Assembly (NCBI GenBank): GCA_000934665.2
Contig: JYFJ02001285.1
Span: 1-64,000 of the forward strand
DNA length: 64,000 bases
Source: Catajapyx aquilonaris
Lineage: Eukaryota
Direction of reading: 5' to 3'
Shown: piece by piece, positions 19,701-53,209 of the stretch
Layout of the letters: each line of letters begins with the position of its first letter
How positions within the stretch are numbered: position 1 is the first letter of the stretch
Notes under the pieces: model-generated
The model's database searches: none
Told to the model about the DNA's origin: nothing
The model's input: only the letters and a program-made list of their open reading frames with translations
Position numbers and translations under genes: made by a program

Positions 19701-21115
19701 TTTCAGCTGATAAGACATCAGACAGAAATAAAACTCACGTCCTTTGACCCCGACAAGTGGGATGTAATGTGATCTGGAACCGCTGCTCCAAGCCAAACAC
19801 AATGGCTTATTCAACTCTCCTGATTTCCCTCGGCAATCCCTCGGTTGAACCAAGCCAGGCAGAAACACAGCTGAAAAATGCGAAGAGAAAATATTAAAAT
19901 CGACCCAGCAGTTCACACTGTACAGGAAACGGATCGTAATTCAACCTGAATAGTCTCCAGAACTGCTCATCCCTTGAAGCGAATCCAACAAAATTATGGG
20001 TCTCTTGAGAACATTTGCCAATCCGAACACGTGTATGTTCCTCAGCCCCAACGGCTCTTCCTTTGCAGGCTGGAACTCGGGATCACATTCGGCTATAATC
20101 TCTTCCCATTCATTCTCATCCACAAACTCCTTCAACAATTCCTGTTTTGCATCCCAAACATTAATTTCTTTTTCGCTGAAAAATAACATTCCCAGCGTAC
20201 CTTGTACTTATGGAGATTCGTCTCGAAGTGCTTCTTAATATCACACCTGAGCGCATGCCAGAAGAGCTCCCTCCCAACAAGAGCCCTGGAAATGGCATGG
20301 ACCAAACAGTGTCCATCTCCCTCAGCATGTATGGGAACAAGCCTCTCTTCACCATCATTAAAGGCCTGAATAACCGACATGGTGTTGGCCAGGTAGAATC
20401 GGCTTCCGGACACATCCCTTCCATACCCAGGCACATTTATATGCTGCGGATCGATCAGAAAGGCCCGCTCACCCAACAAGCTACAGTCAAACGTATCACG
20501 GCTGCTGATATCATGAATCGGGACAACCCCTCCTGTCCGCTTGTCCACCCCGAATATGGTAAGAAGCGGCGACACCAGGCGACAATGGTAGTTGTTCAAT
20601 CCAAGCACCTTAATCTGAAATGACATGTGTCAAATGTCAAGCTCTGGTATATTAAAGAGGAAAAATGTTATGTACTCAGGATTGCGTTAAAAGCCGCAAA
20701 CATGAGCTATATTCACTGCGTATGTTCGTGCGATGGTTACTGAGCAATTGTTACTGCGACAGAAACTGAGCAATTGTTACAGCGACAGACACTGAGCAAT
20801 TGTTACTGCAACAGATACTGAGCAATTGTTACTGCGACAGATACTGAGCAATTGTTACTTAGCGAACGTTACCATTTCAGGCCCTTTCCTGACCGCCCTA
20901 GATCCCAACAGAATGTTTCTGAGAATGGGCATCATTGCGGAGCTCAAGTCGGTGACAGGCTGAACCTCCAAGATGGATCGGTGCTCATGTCTCTGTCCGC
21001 ATTCAGGGCATTCAATGCTGATGTTATGTGACGGGAAGTACAGCTTCGTGTGGCACTTCTCATCGGGACATATCCCAGTCAGGAAATGGGCTTGTTTGGC
21101 AGGTGGACCCGGCAT
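16790..21115 (-). CDS. VCPIP1: Deubiquitinating protein VCPIP1 / VCIP135 (OTU domain plus UBX-like region)
   Basis: Exons (minus): 21115-20873, 20614-20201, 20141-19946, 19870-19739, 19339-18880, 18821-18599, 18540-18408, 18350-18193, 18120-17818, 17749-17582, 17510-17172, 17119-16790. Diagnostic motifs: IECPECGQRHE, GDGHCLVHAISRALVGRELFWHALR (catalytic Cys), LGLRNIHVFGLANVLKRPIILLDS, AWSSGSRSHYIPLVG (catalytic His), CRCGFMHWWDGEEYDNLP, YGFPPKE. Confidence 0.95.
20739..20859. repeat. Minisatellite, 26-bp unit x ~4.6, in VCPIP1 first coding intron
   Basis: Unit ACTGAGCAATTGTTACTGCGACAGAT starting at 20739, 20765, 20791, 20817, 20843. Confidence 0.92.
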
Positions 21116-22807: not shown

Positions 22808-24530
22808 ATGGCTGAGAATCTGAAGAAGAAGCCGAGCAAAGGAATCCTGAAGGCGTCTTCCAGCTTCGACGCCCCAGACAGAGCAGAATCCGCAAAAAGA
22901 CTGTGAGTCACTCTCTCGAATATAATAATTGACATAATTTTAAAAAACAAGAAAAAAAATGGAATACATTTTTTCTGTAATAATAATTGTTATATAAGAG
23001 TGCAATTAACGCAATGGAACATTCCAAACAGCAGGTCGAAGGAGACGAAATGGGATGAGATGAACATTATTGCGACGCTTCATCCGCCGGATAAGGATTA
23101 CGGGCATATGAAGATTGAGGAGCCCAAGACGCCGTACAATTACGAGAAGGACGGATCTGATGAAGAGACGGGTGGGCTTGATGCGGACATGCTGGCCAAA
23201 AAGTATGGGTTTGTTAGTACGTTGCGTAGGAAGCCGGATGCTAATTTGAGTGGTTTAAAATTTTGCAGGATTCAGCTGGGTGCGAGTCAGCCACCGAAGG
23301 CGCTCGTTCCGGAGGAGCCTGAAGACGAAGAGTCCGAGGAGGAAGAGGAATCACCAGAGGAGAGAGGTAATTCAACACAAATCGACAGGAATCGAAGAGT
23401 GTAAATGTTATAGACCAGGAAAAAAAAAATCATAAATTTGTGTTATTTAGACTTTTAAAAGGTGCAGTTTTTGCCATTTTTTCCTGAAAGAGCGGTACGT
23501 ACGCCATGAGGGCCAAGTTTCGGGACTCTCAGTACTCCGAAAGTGGGTTAGGTAGCCTGGACATACAAACAGATGCATTTTCTGCTTCATTATGTAAGAT
23601 TTAGACTTTAAAAAGTGTAGTGTTCTGACTTTTTTCTTGAATCAGCCACATGTAAGTCATGTGTGCCAAGTTTCAGCACTCTCAGCACTCTGAAAGCAGG
23701 TTAGGTAGCCTGGACATACAAACAGACACACTTTCTGCTTTATTATGTAAGAATTAGACTGGAAAAAGTGTTGTTTTGGGACATTTTCCCAAAAATCAGC
23801 TGCATGTGAGCCATGTGTGCCCAGTTTCAGTAGTCTCAGTGATCTAGAAGTGGGTTAGGTAGTCCAGAAATACAAACAGAGGCAGTTTCTGCTTTATTTC
23901 GTAAGATATAACTTATACGAAGAAAAAAAAGTGTTGTTTTGGGATTTTTTCCTGCATCAGCGGCATGTAAGCCAAGTTTCAGCCCTCTCAATAGTCCAAA
24001 AGTGGGTTAGGTAGCCCGGAAATACAGACACACTTTCTGCTTAATTATGTACGATAAGTTGCAGGTACAAAATAAGTTGATTACTGCACCTTTATTATCT
24101 GAGCATTCGCATGCCAAGAGTGTTAACATATTTGAGCAAGGACCGAGTGTGTAATATGATTATATTTGCAGCCCATCGCAAAATGTTCGAGACCAAGCGC
24201 AAGCGGCACTATAACGAGTTCCATGCAGTGAAGTTGGCACGGCAGCTAATGGAGAAGGATGAGGATGGTGATGGTGATGAGGATGAGGAGGACGAGGCTG
24301 CTGAGCTGGAGGAGGAGTCGCAAGAGCCTGCTTCTGGAAGTGGTGGCGTCCAGGCCAGTGCGGGACCCAGCCGTTGCGTAGATTGCGGCGGAAGGCGGAA
24401 CGGGAGAGGAGGCGAGCAGGAAGAAGATGTCAAGGAAGAGCAGGAGGAAGGGAAGGCGGAAAGTGAGACGGAGGTGGGAAAGACGTTGAGCACTACCGCA
24501 GAGATGGATGAGGGTGAGGCGGGCGAATGA
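22808..24530 (+). CDS. PPP1R2: Protein phosphatase 1 inhibitor-2
   Basis: Exons 22808-22902, 23032-23202, 23269-23366, 24172-24530. Motifs KGILK (SILK), KETKWDEMNIIATLHPPDKDYG, KIEEPKTPY (GSK3/CDK Thr site), FETKRKRHYNE, acidic tail. Confidence 0.95.
23447..24055 (-). mobile_element. Four tandem ~153-bp units resembling the 5' end of non-autonomous Helitrons, in PPP1R2 intron 3
   Basis: Units 23447-23600, 23601-23753, 23754-23907, ~23908-24055 share GCCAAGTTTCAG..CTCTCAG..GGTTAGGTAGCC.GGA.ATACAAACAGAC..TTTCTGCTT.ATTATGTAAGAT. Minus strand reads A|TCTTACATAATAAAGCAGAAAGTGTGTCTGTTTGTATG...GTCTAA. The tandem repeat is certain; Helitron identity is inference. Confidence 0.65.
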
Positions 24531-31562: not shown

Positions 31563-34031
31563 CTACTTTAGTCGCTGCAACACGGCTGCGTTGAGAAGGT
31601 TGGCTTCCTTTAGCGTCTGCGTCTCGTCGGTCAGCTCCTTGTTGGGGAAAGTGGTCAGCAGCAAGAAAACAACGGATGCGTACTGAGGACGTGCTCTGGA
31701 TATCCGGTTAAGGAAAACTGCGATTGGGTTACCTCATTGTTCTTCCATTACTATTGTGATCATACGGTGCCAAATAAATTTTCCTACCGTCAGCTTACCT
31801 TCGCGTAATTCCACTCTGTCAAAAAAAGGATACGCTGCGACGTACCTCCTGAGGTCACCTACAGTGTGCCCGTGGTTGAATCGTCCCACCAGCCTGGTCC
31901 CGTCTGCGAGCCTGATCTGGATGCTGGTCTGCGGCTGGTCCTGGTCCAGCGCCAGGGCTGCCTGGGCCTCCTTCTCGGCTGCTTCCCTGGCCTCCTCGGT
32001 GACGGGGGGCGGCGGCACGGCTGCCCCTCCTGCCCCTCCCCCTTCCGTGGCTCCTCCGACCGTTGGTGGTGATGGGCTGCCAAGAGCAAGGATGGGTGAG
32101 AGGAGAAGTCTCCAAATAAATGCTGCCAGCTCCAGGACTGGTCTAAAGAGCAGGTCCAGCGGCCACCACCTTCCCAGCATCATCCCCTGGCCAGTGAATG
32201 GCTGCACCGACGCTCGCGACGATGACGTCTCTGCGTAGTCCTGATGACGGTGATCCTCCATGCTCAGGTGGACCTCCGTCCCCGGGCCGCGCCACCTACG
32301 CTGAAGCTCCATCGGAATCTCCCTGAAGAGATCAGGTTCAATGTAAAAAATAATCTTCGTTGACTCCGGATATAACAGCCTCATTTTCACCCAAGGTGTA
32401 AATCACTCGTCAAGTCTGACCAAGTCCAGCTTTTTATAAGTCCGTTGTACGCTCAACTGCTGAGTGATTTACCCCTTATTTTCACCTCGCCTAGCCTATA
32501 ACAGACAATTTTTTGGCCCACTGGGCGGAAAATTACGCTGGTTTTGATTAGTCAACTTCCTTTCCCAGGCACAGAAAATACTGGATTTTCGCATTTGTCA
32601 CTGATCTAAACTAAAGGCCAATTTCACAAAAAAAATGTCGCGCGGCAAACGGCACGACTTGCGGCAAATTTTTATTTATACTTATTGTTGCCAACAGTTG
32701 GCAACAATAAATATAAATAAAAATTTGCCGCAAGTCGCGCCGTTTGCCGCGCGACATCAACTGTACGTAACATATAAGGCAAAGTTTGTCGGTATGTCTC
32801 ATATGTTTGTAAGGCAAAATTTGTCATTATGTCTTATATGTTTGTACGGCAAAGTTTGTCAGTATGTCCCACTTCCCTCTACCACCCTATTCTGAATTTA
32901 GCAATGTGTTCAGTAATTCTTTAATTCCGTGGAAAGAAGGGGTATCCTGCTAGCTGTGATGTAAGTACGAGTGTGCTTTACCCTCTGCGGATGGAATCAA
33001 GGAAGTCCTTGTTGGCCGGATCTGAGTAGTCCCTCATGGGCTCGTTGTTGAGGCTGAAACCGTTGCGCCACAGCTTCAGTGTGACCTCCCGAGGCGACTC
33101 CTCCGCGTTCGAGGGGCCACCGACCACCTCGGTGTCCTCCGAACCCTGCCCCAGCCTGTATCCGACCCCGCTAAAGTGCGCATCCTTCTTCCTCGCCTTA
33201 CTGCGAGGATCAATCACCTCCGCATGCTCCTTAGCCGACTTGAACATCTCGGCCACTATATCGTGCTTCTTCTTCCCCGGCCCTATAACCTGCTGGCCGC
33301 TCCTTTCCGACCCGCCTGCATAGAAAGCCTGCCCTTCCTCCTCATCCGAATCACTGTCCTCTTTGGACATTGTGTGCAGGGTGGCAAACCGAGACTTTTC
33401 CTTCGGGGCTTTTTTAGCCGCAGAAGACGGAGGAGCCTGCGGAGGGTCTGGTGCCGCCGGCTCTGGAGCTGACGGGCTCATCTGGACATCAGGCTCACCT
33501 TGCTCGTAGAAATTAGCCAGAGCAACCTGCCACAGAAGTACTCATTACATACTAAATACTTACTGTACATATTACCTTAAAAATATGCTCTCTCTCTAGC
33601 TAGATAATTTATGAGTCACATAGAAAAGTCAACTATTCTGAATCGAAAAATTCTAACACTATTACAACAGTTCTGAATCGAACAGTTCGAACAGCTCGGA
33701 ATTGAACCGTTCTGAATCGAGCAATTCGAACAATTCTGAATCGAACTAATTAGAACAGTTCTGAATCGATTAATTCGAACAATTCTGAATCGAACAATTG
33801 GAACAGTTCTGAATCGAACTAATTCGAACAGTTCTGAATCGAACTAATTCGAACAGTTCTGAATCGAACGAATTAGAACAGTTCTAAATCGAACGAATTC
33901 GAACGTTCCATTTTTATAATTTTTCTTACCTCAAGCTGCCAGGCAGCAGATTCCAAGTAGAACTTGGCCCGATCTGCGTGAACTCCAGTCACGTCCGAGA
34001 ACTGGGATATCAGCTCATCATGGTCCGACAT
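31563..34031 (-). CDS. NSFL1C: NSFL1 cofactor p47 (UBA-SEP-UBX adaptor of p97/VCP)
   Basis: Exons (minus): 34031-33930, 33526-32982, 32322-32170, 32076-31834, 31695-31563. UBA ([11 protein letters not shown]...[18 protein letters not shown]), [22 protein letters not shown] ([11 protein letters not shown]...[14 protein letters not shown]), SHP boxes FSGVGYRLG and [12 protein letters not shown] ([11 protein letters not shown]...[30 protein letters not shown]). Confidence 0.96.
31696..31833 (-). other. U12-type (minor spliceosome) GT-AG intron in NSFL1C
   Basis: Minus strand 5' splice site GTATCCTTTT (from 31833), branch site TTCCTTAAC followed by CGGATATCCAG, no polypyrimidine tract; removal restores the UBX reading frame RRYVAAARPQY. 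Confidence 0.93.
32392..32478. mobile_element. 87-bp MITE with ~17-bp TIRs and 8-bp TSD (P/hAT-like) in NSFL1C intron 2
   Basis: CAAGGTGTAAATCACTC ... GAGTGATTTACCCCTTA flanked by TTTTCACC at 32384-32391 and 32479-32486. Confidence 0.75.
32635..32757. repeat. 123-bp palindrome (61-bp arms, 1-nt centre, 2 mismatches) in NSFL1C intron 2
   Basis: ATGTCGCGCGGCAAACGGCACGACTTGCGGCAAATTTTTATTTATACTTATTGTTGCCAAC-A-reverse complement; centre at 32696; mismatches 32654/32738 and 32681/32711. Confidence 0.95.
32775..32868. repeat. 35-bp tandem repeat x ~2.7
   Basis: TAAGGCAAAGTTTGTCGGTATGTCTCATATGTTTG-like units start at 32775, 32810, 32845. Confidence 0.85.
33633..33908. repeat. Minisatellite, ~25-bp unit x ~10, in NSFL1C intron 1
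   Basis: Repeated GAACAGTTCTGAATCGAACTAATTC with variants, ending about 20 nt from the exon-1 donor. Confidence 0.92.
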
Positions 34032-34745: not shown

Positions 34746-37700
34746 ATGAGCAACATTTATATTCAGGAACCGCCCACACACGGGAAGGTAAATTTTTTTT
34801 TAAAAGCCATTCATGACAATAAGTAGCCTACTGGCAGATAATTTTCTGCAAATTAATTGATGTGTTAATTAATAAATGTGGTTTTTCTGATTAACATTAT
34901 TGGAGACAAAAATGGACAGCTTCAAATACCTGGTATTTTCAGGTCCTGTTGGAGACGACTGTTGGTGATATTGACATTGAACTGTGGTCGAAGGAAGCGC
35001 CGAAAGCATGTCGAAATTTTATCCAGCTTTTAATGGAGGGGTACTACAACGGAACTGGGTTCCATCGGGTCGTGAAGGGATTCATCGTGCAAGGTGGCGA
35101 CCCAGAAGGAGACGGGACAGGTGGTGAATCGATATACGGAAAGCCATTCAAGGTAAGCATTGCAAACAATGCGAATGACAAGCAGAATTTTAACATACTT
35201 TATTATCAGGATGAATTCCACACGAGATTGCGATTCTGCCGACGTGGACTACTGGCCATGGCTAATGCAGGAAAGGATGATAATGGGTCGCAGTTTTTCT
35301 TCACGATGGCACCGACTCCGGAACTTCAGAGCAAGCATACAATTTTTGGAAAAGTCGCAGGGGACACCATATACAACATGCTGAAACTGGAGGAAGTTGA
35401 AATCGGAGAGGTGAATTTTAGCGGCAGTTGTAATGTCAGCGGGGTTTTTTTTTAAAAAAATTATATTTATTTTTCAGGATGAACGCCCGGTGTATCCGCC
35501 TAAGATAATCCGCGGGAAAATACTTTTCAACCCTTTTGAAGACATTGTACCAAGAGTAACGGCTTCCAAAAAGCCAAAGGAAGAGGGAAAGAAGAAGGGA
35601 AAAGTTGTTGGCAAAAAGTAAGGTCTGCCTTTTCGAACTATGATGCGAATACCACAATGTATTGCACCAACTTGTAGTGTGTCAAAACTCATTGCGATTT
35701 TCCAAGAAAGTTGGTTGCGGAATTGTCTGGAGTTAATGCCCCCTCTACGAGCGTTATCACCGTCTGCTCAATCTGATGATAACTTGAGTTGCGTGGTTGC
35801 GGGCAGGTCATGGCTATAGTTATTTTTATGTCGGAGTAGTGAAAATGAAGGAAAGTTGCGAAAACGATTATATCTAGGGGTGCGATTTGCTTCAGAGATA
35901 ATTCAGTTCTATGCCATGTTTACGATTGGTTCAGTAGGGATAAGTCACCTTATGAAGGCATCAGGTCAATGGGGTTACGTTTAATAAATGACCTGCAAAA
36001 AAAGTTTTCCACCAGTTGAAAGAAAGTGCTGGATAAAATCAAATATCAATTTTTGCAGGGATTTTAAGCTGCTGTCTTTTGGAGCTGAAGCGGAGGAAGA
36101 TGAGGAGGAAATGGCAGAAGTCAACAAGAGTTTCTCCGGAAAGAGCAAATCAAGTCACGACCTGGCGAACGACCCGAAACTCAGCTCACAGCCTGCTGTG
36201 GAATCTAACAAAGGGAAGAAACGAAAGGAAGAAAAGTTAGAGAGCGACGAGAGTGACGATAATAATTCTTCAGACACATCTGAAAAGGTGGAGGAGAAGA
36301 AGAAGGCATTGGAGCAAGTGAAGAAGAAACTGAAAAAGGAGGACAAAAAAGCCGAAAGCAGCGACGATGAGGAGTATTACCTTGGAAAAGACAGGGACGA
36401 GGCAAATAAGATAAAGATGTAAGTAATGTAAGAGACAGCACATGACAGGTGCCGGTATTGTTTTTATTTTAGTGACATTAATGAATAAAATTGCTCCGCG
36501 ACTGTAGGGAAGAAATTCGCAAGGAAATTCGAAGCCTGAAGAAGGAGATGAAGGGTGGAGACCCAAACGAGGCCCAGCAGAGCGGACCAAGTGGAACGCA
36601 ATCCAAAACCAGCTTGCTGGAAGCATATCAGAAAGAAATGGCGATATACAGAGAAAAAACGGAAGTCATCAAGAAGGGTGGGTACCGCACAGAATTTCAT
36701 CTCGTTTTGTAAAACTATTCTGCGGACGTTCGATTGAAGAGTCGGATGATAATTTAAGGTCAAAGTTGATCTCTTGTTGTTTGGAGATGATTAGACCTTC
36801 CTGGGGCATATCTGCGGTGAATGCGACCATTGATTAATTCCTAACTTCCAGTGTGTGTATAGTTGCATTTCAAGGTTCTTGTAAAAAAATTACTTTGGAA
36901 TTAATCATAAGCATGAGCTATGGGAAGGCATGTTTTCACAGCTGGTTTCAAGAAGCTTCTTTGAATACTTGCGGTCATGTTTGCAGATTACTTTGCTAAA
37001 AATACAATTGTTTTGCAAATTTTGAAACGTGCCAGATGGTGAATACTGGTTTAACAACACCGCCTTGCACCCGTAAACTTTGGTCAGCTCTAATCAATTT
37101 CGAATGGGTTTCGCTGTGAGTTTATTTAGGTCAGGTTCTGCCAATAAAGGTAGATTGATGACCGAGGATTCATCCTTGTCAGCGATGTTCATTGTTCCCA
37201 ACTATTAAAGACGAAGATAAATCCTCGGTCGTCACCCTACAGTATCGTCAATGGCGTAACCTAATTTCTTTTGGTAGATCACTCTTTGAATCAGGAGCAT
37301 GTCTTTCAATGCAGTTGATTTTACAGCACTTCTGTAGCCTAATCTGTCTCTTATTTACGTAAAAATATTTTGAGTTGCTGCATCACATCTTAAAAATATG
37401 CAATTTTTGCAAGGCGACAACATGTGCCTCATCTGAATATTGGCAGCTTAATATTAATGTGTACAGTAAATGTAATAATTACACGGTTTGGCTGGTTTCT
37501 CGGAGCCAAATCTGGTAACTGTTTTGATAACCTATTGCGCATTTTCCATGCTGATTAATGTCAGCGCGTGTTTTTATATGTGCATGACTCATACAACAAA
37601 CTTGGAGGATATAGTCTTTATAACTGGTTTTTTTGTTCGAGAAGGAAATAGTTTCAGGTTCAAAGGAAATGAAAAGACCTATGAGCTGATATCACTAATG

Positions 37701-50691: not shown

Positions 50692-53209
50692 ATGCTGAGA
50701 GTGTCCTGGGCGTCAATGCTGGACGTGAGCCTGTCCCCGGGCGCTGGCAGCGAGGCCTCCTCGCCGGCGCCCCCTAACGGCAGCGAGCACGCATCCGACG
50801 CCGACGCCGACGTCGACTCCGACGACCTGGAGGACAACTCGGACGACCTTTCCCCAGTCACCTCCGACCCTGACGACCACCTCTCCGACCGGGACGCCGC
50901 TCAGGTAAAAATGCTCATTTCGAATTGTTTTCTTCTAAGTTTTTTGGTGCAAGTGTGTCTTGATGTGTAGCTACTTAAAAAAACTGACGTTAGTCTATTT
51001 ATTATTATTAGGGTTCTGAAATATTATGCTTTTCAACATTGCAACTGAAAATAATTGTAAAGAGGATGTTATTACCTTATAATTACGTCAATTGCATTGT
51101 ATAATCATAATTATAGTTAAATATGTTACAATTATGTCATAACGCCGCAAAGCTATATTGTAAAAATAATCGCGAATTTTTTCCACTTGCTAGTGCATGC
51201 AAAAATTTTTACACAAACCTGTATTGTACTGGCAACAATTAGTTAAAAACTTTTAAAAGTAAAAAGTATTAAATAATCCTCAGCTGATGTGCCCGTGCGC
51301 CGCAATAAGACCAACGCAATTGCCGAATAATTCAATACGTACCGTATAAATGAAAGCGCTGTACAGTACATTAGTGAAACGCAATGAAGCGAATAGCCGT
51401 AAAGCGAGGATATGCCTGTAATTGCAAATTCTACCCGTACTTCTACAGTATGTAATTCTGTCAATTTCGACCTTCCTACATGCTACATCATGAGATATTT
51501 CGGCTTGCGGAATGAAAACACTTGTCTGACTCTCTAGACCGGGCTTGCAGATGTTGACATTTTTGCTGAGAAAACGGTCAGAATCATAAAAACGTGGTGC
51601 AAGGAGGAAGTACTTCACGGTGAATACGCACAGTGCTTGGCACTCCTGTAAATGCGTCTTACACTATAGTATAGAGATATATCTCTTAAGTGCGATTTCA
51701 CCGAAGCATGTCATAATTACATTTCATTGCAGGCATTGCAACAACAGAAGCTAACTATTCTGCATAATTATTATGATGAGAGTTTTTTTTCTGTTTGTTC
51801 TGCATTGTAACAGTTGTTTCAGCAAACTTACAACATCCTGAATTATCGTTCCAGGAGTTTCGATGGGAAGAATCGGAGGGACACGACTGCTCCCGAGACA
51901 GTGCTGGCAGCAGCCAAGGACATTTTTCCAGTGTCGTGTTTGACCCCAACAACCTTCACTCCCACGAGCTCTCGGATTCCAGCAAGACAGATGGTTCCAC
52001 TGTCCAATGCGGGTGCGCTACATCCATCTCAATTTATTTGAGTTTTAACAGTCATTACCAAGTAGACAGTATGGATGGTGCACTGACCAAGTAGTCCCCA
52101 GTTCAAGATGTTGACTCTTATCAACCAGTATAGTTTAAAGAGAAGAAACATGTTGGGGCTCATATTTTGTGATTGACCCCTGATTGCTGCTTCTCTTCAA
52201 ACTCCAGCCTAAACAGAAAAAAATAATTATAACTGATCTGCGGACTTGGACAGTGAACCTTCCCGTATGGGCAACACAGGTCGTATTTTCGTCACTCATA
52301 CACTTAAAATATATGGCCGTGCCTTTCAGTGTGGCAGTCAGGCTTGATCAAATGGCTCTATCTCTCATCAGGGGAGGCTTACTCGTCGCAAGACCGGACC
52401 TACGACCTGTGGAACCTGGCTTCGGTCCTTTCGAGGCCACCTCTTCTTCTCAATCCCGACACCATCACCACCACCATAACCACCACCATTCTTCAAACAC
52501 CCACCATCCTCATGTCCACAGAATGGTGAGAAAACTCTTCACCAACAGCCGAGAGCGATGGCGCCAGCAGAACGTCAGTGGTGCCTTCGCCGAGCTGAGG
52601 AAGCTGGTTCCGACCCATCCTCCGGACAAGAAGCTGAGCAAGAACGAGATCCTCCGGATGGCCATCAAGTACATCAAGCTTCTGGCCAGCGTCTTGGAGT
52701 GGCAGACCCGGAACGATGATTGTCCAGCGGAGCAGCAGAAGATATTCAAGAGAGAGACCAATGGAGAACCGGAGTTGTTGCAGGTCAAGTCCGAACATGC
52801 TGCACCTTCTTGCGCCAGGCATTACCCGCAGGAGGTGACCACATCGACCCCGACATATGATCGGAATGGGAACTTGGATTCGTCCTTTCGCGGTTTCCAG
52901 TCTTTCAGAACGGCGTACAGTCCGTTTGCGCTGGAGAGAGGTCCTATCCGGCCGTACATGCACTTGTTCTCCGGTGGACGTCCCAGCACCAGCACCACTG
53001 TCGAGGAGCAGTCATCGGAGGCCTCCACTTCGGCCGATTCCAGGCAGGTCGTGTTAAGGGCTGGTCGCATGGAGGTCGATAATGAGGCCAAGGAGGAGGT
53101 CAAAGGTGACGTGGACGCTGCCAGGTGGAATGGGAAGAGGGTGGACGAAGACTGGGTTCCTCCGCCCAAAAAGGGATGTCGGATCTCATCCACCAATGGC
53201 CAGAGCTGA
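50692..53209 (+). CDS. TAL1: TAL1/SCL/LYL1-family bHLH transcription factor (Drosophila HLH3B type)
   Basis: Exons 50692(or 50716)-50904, 51855-52012, 52330-53209. b[56 protein letters not shown], preceded by a poly-His tract. bHLH exon is certain; the two upstream exons join in frame but are less certain. Confidence 0.9.

Follow-up and report, generated by a model that had tools for sequence, protein, structure and literature searches.

Exitrons, as presented in extracts from Marquez et al. (2015, PMC4484396), are alternatively spliced segments inside annotated coding exons; they have coding flanks, GT-AG ends, no stop, a length divisible by three (3n), an intermediate content of guanine and cytosine (GC) and a high retained share, and those that were traced came from ancestral coding sequence. 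Exitrons of Drosophila odorant receptors were reported in 2024 (PMC10990081, likewise in extract). A second described class is formed by short, stop-free 3n introns, which give no premature stop on retention and escape nonsense-mediated decay; such introns are reported to be counter-selected and in genome-wide deficit, their retention being unpoliced (Jaillon 2008, as cited in the extracts from PMC4484396). The subject of this work is a 93-nucleotide (nt) intron that resembles both classes. It lies at 32077-32169 in a gene for p47 (NSFL1C), on the minus strand of a 64,000-nt stretch of Catajapyx aquilonaris DNA (contig JYFJ02001285.1, positions 1 to 64,000), referred to below as the window. 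It shares with exitrons the alternative splicing, the coding flanks, the GT-AG ends, the open 3n frame, the intermediate GC and the high retained share; however, it sits at what appears to be an old intron site. In comparison to the genome-wide deficit of the second class it is a single surviving case, very highly retained, in a disordered linker that may accommodate an insertion without harm.

Among the adaptors with which the p97/VCP ATPase acts in membrane fusion, p47 is a core one, and it is treated as soluble. UBXN4, also a p97 adaptor, has a membrane hairpin. UBXD8 (FAF2) has a hairpin of 29 embedded residues, in which a central proline kink lies between two short helices that run antiparallel (extracts from PMC11130287). 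The peptide encoded by the 93-nt intron is like that hairpin in being hydrophobic, proline-containing, about 30 residues long and part of a UBX-domain p97 adaptor. However, the UBXD8 hairpin is described in the same extracts as N-terminal to the UAS and UBX domains, whereas the p47 insert stands between the SHP box and the UBX domain. A preliminary description of the window had taken the intron for exitron-like and the insert for a membrane hairpin, by which splicing could switch p47 between a soluble and an anchored form. Our preferred reading, held with slightly better than even confidence, is that leaky splicing yields the long form as a by-product, which a linker permissive to insertions tolerates, and that it is not a selected membrane anchor.

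Two RNA forms of a 93-nt p47 intron

The locus is held by one public run (X1), whose type is unrecorded and which is available as assembled contigs with rough depths. Since these contigs are spliced, they derive from RNA. One of them joins 32076 to 32170 and skips the 93 nt with CT..AC ends (depth 19), and another, 151 nt long, covers 32049-32199 free of gaps (depth 28.5). On either side, the exon contigs, at depths of 42.9 and 38.1, break off at 32078 and 32170 in the manner of an assembly bubble, and the depths of the two branches add up to 47.5, near the flank depths of 38-43. In introns 1 and 2, the bins that are free of diverged repeat contigs lie at depth 0; in intron 4, two overlapping bins show exactly the depth expected from their exonic bases, with no retained cover. 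Thus, the 93-nt intron is alternatively spliced and is retained in about 0.6 of the depth in one sample, and the other introns are removed. The preliminary description had proposed to quantify spliced and retained reads by tissue; both forms are found and the retained share can be given, but for this one sample only.

The two contigs could also be an artefact, with no alternative splicing behind them: the through-contig would then stem from contaminating genomic DNA, or the junction contig from a copy or allele in which the 93 nt are missing. The unrecorded type of the run leaves room for this, as does the junction row, which is flagged 'between: not known' and consists of one short contig with a side of 28. 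We consider it extremely improbable nonetheless. Introns 1, 2 and 4 have no cover of their own in the same run, against a depth of 28.5 for the 93-nt intron, which speaks against an origin from genomic DNA or bulk pre-mRNA. Furthermore, the skipped piece has exact GT..AG ends, its removal restores an invariant Leu-Gly-Ser, and the branch depths together approximate those of the flanks.

A quite unlikely, though coherent, alternative is that the retained transcripts are nuclear and 'detained', slowly spliced and never exported or translated, so that only the 391-residue protein exists. Contigs are blind to the place of an RNA in the cell, the library type is unrecorded, and a single GC-rich short intron kept in otherwise spliced RNA is the pattern of detained introns. 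Against detention, about 0.6 of the steady-state depth would imply, for a housekeeping gene, that a great deal of its RNA is kept in the nucleus. Moreover, the contigs break at the bubble and show the retained form across 32049-32199, so that the otherwise spliced state of these molecules is presumed.

The intron starts with GTGGTG after AAG, ends with GGCAG and lies in phase 2. When it is read in the frame of the exons it contains 0 stops and yields 31 residues, which begin one residue past the SHP box FTGQGMMLG and precede the linker leading to the UBX domain. Coordinates, strand and content are as the preliminary description had given them, and so are the absence of a stop, the GC of 0.559 (52/93) and the translated peptide. 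The GC content lies between that of the other introns (0.335-0.406) and that of the exons (0.54-0.70). This bears out the claimed contrast to AT-rich introns, but not the claim that those introns are short, since at 403, 659 and 138 nt they are not especially so. The donor had been called weak. Scored as matches to MAG/GTRAGT over nine positions (the slash marks the exon-intron border), AAG/GTGGTG agrees at 6/9, with three of the six intronic positions off consensus. The donors of the other three introns score 7, 6 and 4. Weaker splice signals are among the traits of exitrons; by these scores the donor is middling and not the weakest of the gene.

How far an open frame is to be expected was estimated by shuffling. 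In 41% of 20,000 composition-matched shuffles the sequence is free of stops in this frame, and multiplied by one third for a 3n length this gives an open 3n intron in about 1 of 7 cases by chance; openness in frame, taken alone, is therefore unremarkable. The composition changes along the intron. GC at third positions is 0.80 over the first 15 codons of the insert and 0.38 over the last 16, compared with 0.70 for the coding sequence, and because of this drop the 3' half does not look coding. Judged by its composition it resembles a polypyrimidine tract: the 3' 33 nt are 76% pyrimidine, and their CT-run reads LLLSPILAL in frame, which accounts for much of the hydrophobicity of the insert.

The window holds no second copy of the 93 nt, the best other match being 15 nt long. 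A tandem-duplication origin was judged by eye only; by that judgement, the first bases of the intron do not recur at the beginning of the next exon. Rfam gave no match overlapping the 93 nt at an expect value (E) up to 1. A mirtron or other structured intronic RNA was considered and rejected: folded by itself the intron has a z-score of +0.91, folded together with its flanks one of +1.59, and 165 and 193 of 200 shuffles, respectively, fold at least as well.

The predicted insert and the membrane question

Retention would lengthen the product from 391 to 422 residues, placing the 31 additional ones in the linker between the SHP box and the UBX domain. The insert is rich in Trp and Leu and has prolines at its positions 4, 11 and 26. 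Five of its residues are charged (R, D, R, E, R), and the longest uncharged run is 10 residues. The Kyte-Doolittle maximum over 19 residues is 1.93, and the usual cut-off is 1.6. Simple sums of insertion energy come to +3.28 and +7.22 kcal/mol for the best windows of 19 and 23 residues, respectively. AlphaFold2, run on a 162-residue fragment with a 48-row alignment, places a single 19-residue helix at residues 56-74 and leaves the last 7 residues of the insert non-helical. The four charges of the predicted helix fall within an 80-degree arc, and the hydrophobic moment of the insert reaches 0.57 at a mean hydrophobicity of 0.37. Because there is one helix with all four charges on one side, the insert is predicted to be one amphipathic helix and not a pair of antiparallel helices.

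These properties bear on the claim that the insert is an integral membrane hairpin anchoring p47 in the endoplasmic reticulum (ER) or in lipid droplets, as in UBXD8/FAF2 or UBXN4. The Kyte-Doolittle maximum exceeds the usual cut-off, and the three prolines could permit kinks. The hairpin of UBXD8 itself contains a central arginine (extracts from PMC11130287). However, the insert has five charges with at most 10 uncharged residues in a row, its insertion energies are positive in both windows, and the model gives a single helix where a hairpin would have two antiparallel ones. With 31 residues, the last 7 of them non-helical, it is also too short for two embedded arms like those of UBXD8. A membrane hairpin of the UBXD8 type is thus not supported by these predictions, and we regard it as very improbable.

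Conservation and origin of the insert

Of 134 aligned homologues, 132 show no residue in the columns of the insert, and none of the 134 has a similar one. The Leu-Gly-Ser that spans the junction is invariant in a six-row alignment. With the retained fragment of 162 residues as query, HMMER returned 728 matches among 1.84 billion representatives, none at E 1e-30 or better; of 147 matches newly fetched from it, 142 span the site, and none of these has a similar insert. A search by words that was directed at the insert in longer proteins came back empty, and a search of a protein language-model atlas with residues 48-84 returned no usable match. Since the insert is absent from 132 of the 134 homologues and none of the relatives found has a similar one, it is not ancestral coding sequence. 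The exitron likeness of the preliminary description is therefore partial: both RNA forms, the stop-free 3n length and the intermediate GC stand, and an origin from sequence that is coding in relatives or in an ancestor does not.

Short open reading frames (ORFs) of other species offer a view of the orthologous intron. Such ORFs run past the UBX half-exon into the counterpart of intron 4, reading Tyr-Pro in the way that the GTATCC donor does; for this reason they are taken as unspliced sequence. As this Tyr-Pro is seen in many species, the first bases of intron 4, GTATCC, seem to be widely conserved. Eight of these ORFs (P0170, P0204, P0216, P0232, P0236, P0246, P0255 and P0258) begin only some residues ahead of the Ser/Ala-Pro found after the junction. 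The upstream exon is absent from them, and hence the frame is probably broken at the site of the 93-nt intron. In P0143 and P0222 the intron can be read through in frame; the resulting inserts, of 30 and 22 residues, are unrelated, and one of the two has a Kyte-Doolittle maximum of 2.98, far above the insert described here, whereas the other, at 0.81, is not hydrophobic. P0137 and P0201 have no insert. Additional residues at the same junction also occur in p47 records of other insects: isoform X1 of Schistocerca nitens (P0017) has 7 exactly after the Leu-Gly of the SHP box, and two Timema models (P0040 and P0041) have 80 and 83 just past the junction. None of the inserts in Schistocerca, Timema, P0143 and P0222 resembles the present one, and they may be real isoforms or read-through in gene models. 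These comparisons indicate that the intron site is old and that its frame is not generally conserved across distant species. To the test of length and openness in related species that had been proposed at the outset, the answer for distant species is therefore mixed, with two ORFs in frame that encode unrelated inserts and eight probably out of frame.

The p47 gene and its surroundings

The gene is a p47/NSFL1C orthologue of five exons; it is read from the minus strand and runs from the start codon at 34031-34029 to the stop TAG at 31565-31563 (Table 1). Pfam matches follow the domain order of p47, with a UBA-like domain at the N-terminus, a central SEP domain and a C-terminal UBX domain. The UBX match is split over exons 4 and 5 (E 2.5e-8 and 2e-6 on its halves), and the part in exon 4 is modelled by AlphaFold2 at a predicted local distance difference test score (pLDDT) of 90-95. 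Read on the minus strand, all four joints in the X1 contigs show GT..AG ends. The spliced coding sequence comprises 1176 nt and 391 residues and is colinear with orthologues of 370-390 residues; at intron 4 this colinearity is restored by the joint at the donor AGC/GTATCC (31833). SHP motifs, for which we take F-x-G-x-G-x-x-L-G to be the pattern, occur at residues 152-160 and 258-266 of the spliced protein. The ORF of exon 2 shares 54-55% identity with proteins from Schistocerca, Periplaneta, Cryptotermes and Lycorma that carry the name NSFL1 cofactor p47. Judged by these matches, the gene is the p47 orthologue of an insect to which no close relative is present in the protein collections.

Table 1. 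Positions of the parts of the p47 gene and of other features in the window (E, expect value)
Feature	Position	Strand	Description
Exon 1, coding part	33930..34031	-	Start codon, UBA-like domain; Pfam UBA_8 E 3.2e-9, UBA_4 E 5.6e-9
Intron 1	33527..33929	-	403 nt, GC 0.335, donor GAG/GTAAGA; joint 33524>33928, cut +2, contig depth 38.1
Exon 2	32982..33526	-	Acidic stretch, first SHP-like motif FSGVGYRLG, start of SEP domain; Pfam SEP E 4.7e-11
Intron 2	32323..32981	-	659 nt, GC 0.404; joint 32321>32981, cut +1
Exon 3	32170..32322	-	End of SEP domain (Pfam SEP E 1.7e-5), C-terminal SHP box FTGQGMMLG at 32172-32198
Intron 3 (the 93-nt intron)	32077..32169	-	Phase-2 GT-AG, GC 0.559, open in frame; joint 32076>32170
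Exon 4	31834..32076	-	Gly/Ala/Pro-rich linker, helix, first half of UBX; GC 69.5%
Intron 4	31696..31833	-	138 nt, GC 0.406, donor AGC/GTATCC; joint 31695>31834, depth 42.9
Exon 5, coding part	31563..31695	-	Second half of UBX, stop TAG
Tandem repeat in p47 intron 1	33700-33908		25-nt unit, 8.6 copies
Tandem repeat in p47 intron 2	32775-32868		35-nt unit, 2.7 copies
Inverted repeat in p47 intron 2	32635-32757		Near-perfect, 61-nt arms, 97% complementary, 1 nt between
VCIP135 N-terminal domain ORF	20132-20629	-	Pfam PF19437, E 1.2e-34
ORF, 410 residues	30202-31434	+	Weak match to glycosyltransferase family 92, E 3.7e-5
Cyclophilin-type isomerase	34895-35455	+	E 7.9e-42
Protein phosphatase inhibitor 2	22907-23404	+	E 6.2e-20
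Helix-loop-helix protein	52184-53209	+	E 6.2e-19

The inverted repeat in intron 2 has many matches to microRNA precursors, all below the gathering scores. An X1 contig over 32629-32712 (depth 6.6) carries 3 differences from it, which suggests that a diverged copy is transcribed somewhere and that the repeat is a repeated hairpin element. At the 3' end of p47, the 410-residue ORF converges on the gene, and a 1370-nt X1 contig that contains the last p47 exons continues 829 nt beyond 31400 into this ORF; since the one contig spans both, the two transcripts abut or overlap. About 11 kb from p47, on the same strand, lies the ORF matching the N-terminal domain of VCIP135. VCIP135 is a deubiquitinase that works with the p97-p47 complex.

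Probable leaky splicing and the possible role of the long form

According to the preferred reading, the 93-nt segment is a true spliceosomal intron, short and located at an old intron site of p47, that by chance is 3n and stop-free. Its GC content, which is near that of the GC-rich flanking exons, together with the off-consensus positions of its donor, probably leads to poor recognition by the spliceosome. Poor recognition, in turn, would keep the intron in more than half of the steady-state transcript depth, as found in the one sample. Because the intron is 3n and open, retention brings no premature stop, and the retained transcripts should be spared nonsense-mediated decay, build up and be open to translation. 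The resulting 422-residue product would carry an additional amphipathic helix in a flexible linker between SHP box and UBX domain that is already long in the spliced form (its 53 residues compare with a median of 40 in 111 homologues), where it is probably tolerated.

Several points weigh against a by-product. A retention of about 0.6 is high for noise, and the extracts from PMC4484396 give high inclusion as a mark that sets exitrons apart from ordinary retained introns. The gene also has a weaker donor: intron 4, whose donor has only 4/9 matches, shows no retained cover, and donor weakness alone consequently cannot account for the retention. AlphaFold2 models the helix with fair confidence, the block pLDDT being 59-83 over the helix and below 50 in the flanks. 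Of 16,355 stop-free shuffles, 218 (1.3%) reach a Kyte-Doolittle maximum of 1.93, so that the insert exceeds 98.7% of them, although the signal is mild, since shuffling breaks the CT-run of the polypyrimidine tract and overstates the rarity of such hydrophobicity. The RNA evidence comes from one run of unrecorded type and from contigs with rough depths, including the short, flagged junction contig. Finally, the compared species are at most about 55-60% identical, and their sequences speak for distant relatives only and not for selection in close ones.

A regulated switch of the exitron type, in which both isoforms are purposeful and the long p47 has a function of its own, is unlikely. The helix could hold p97-p47 peripherally on the Golgi, the ER or lipid droplets, or could alter the engagement of the p97 N domain by the SHP box or the UBX domain. 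Such a switch would fit the comparable depth of the two forms next to cleanly removed other introns, the 3n, stop-free and exitron-like sequence with its GC between introns and exons, and the small share of shuffles that are as hydrophobic. The hydrophobic moment, the clustering of the four helix charges and the start of the insert one residue after the SHP box point in the same direction. However, no conservation is seen: the insert is absent from all relatives found, and the orthologous introns of other species are mostly unreadable in frame, the two readable ones encoding unrelated peptides. In addition, the 3' half of the intron is polypyrimidine-like rather than coding-like, and the case for a switch rests on a single sample.

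A bolder form of this idea is a long shot. It would have p47 of this insect lineage gain a splicing-controlled module that sets a soluble adaptor against a surface-bound or auto-inhibited one. With the same small likelihood, the retained Trp/Leu-rich amphipathic helix would serve as that module either by docking the p97-p47 fusion machinery on the Golgi, the ER or lipid droplets, or by masking the SHP box. A literature search found nothing joining an exitron with NSFL1C, and for a p47 splice variant with a membrane anchor it returned general reviews only. Within the reach of these searches, a pair of soluble and surface-bound or auto-inhibited p47 isoforms is not in print.

With one RNA sample and no conservation, the locus is a modest curiosity as it stands. 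It is nevertheless a clean natural example of a stop-free 3n intron that is highly retained in a conserved housekeeping gene, and it bears on how ordinary introns, besides sequence that was once coding, can give rise to exitron-like events. Should the long isoform be produced, much of the p47 in this insect would have a sticky amphipathic helix next to the SHP box that binds p97, which could alter p97 binding or the localisation of the adaptor.

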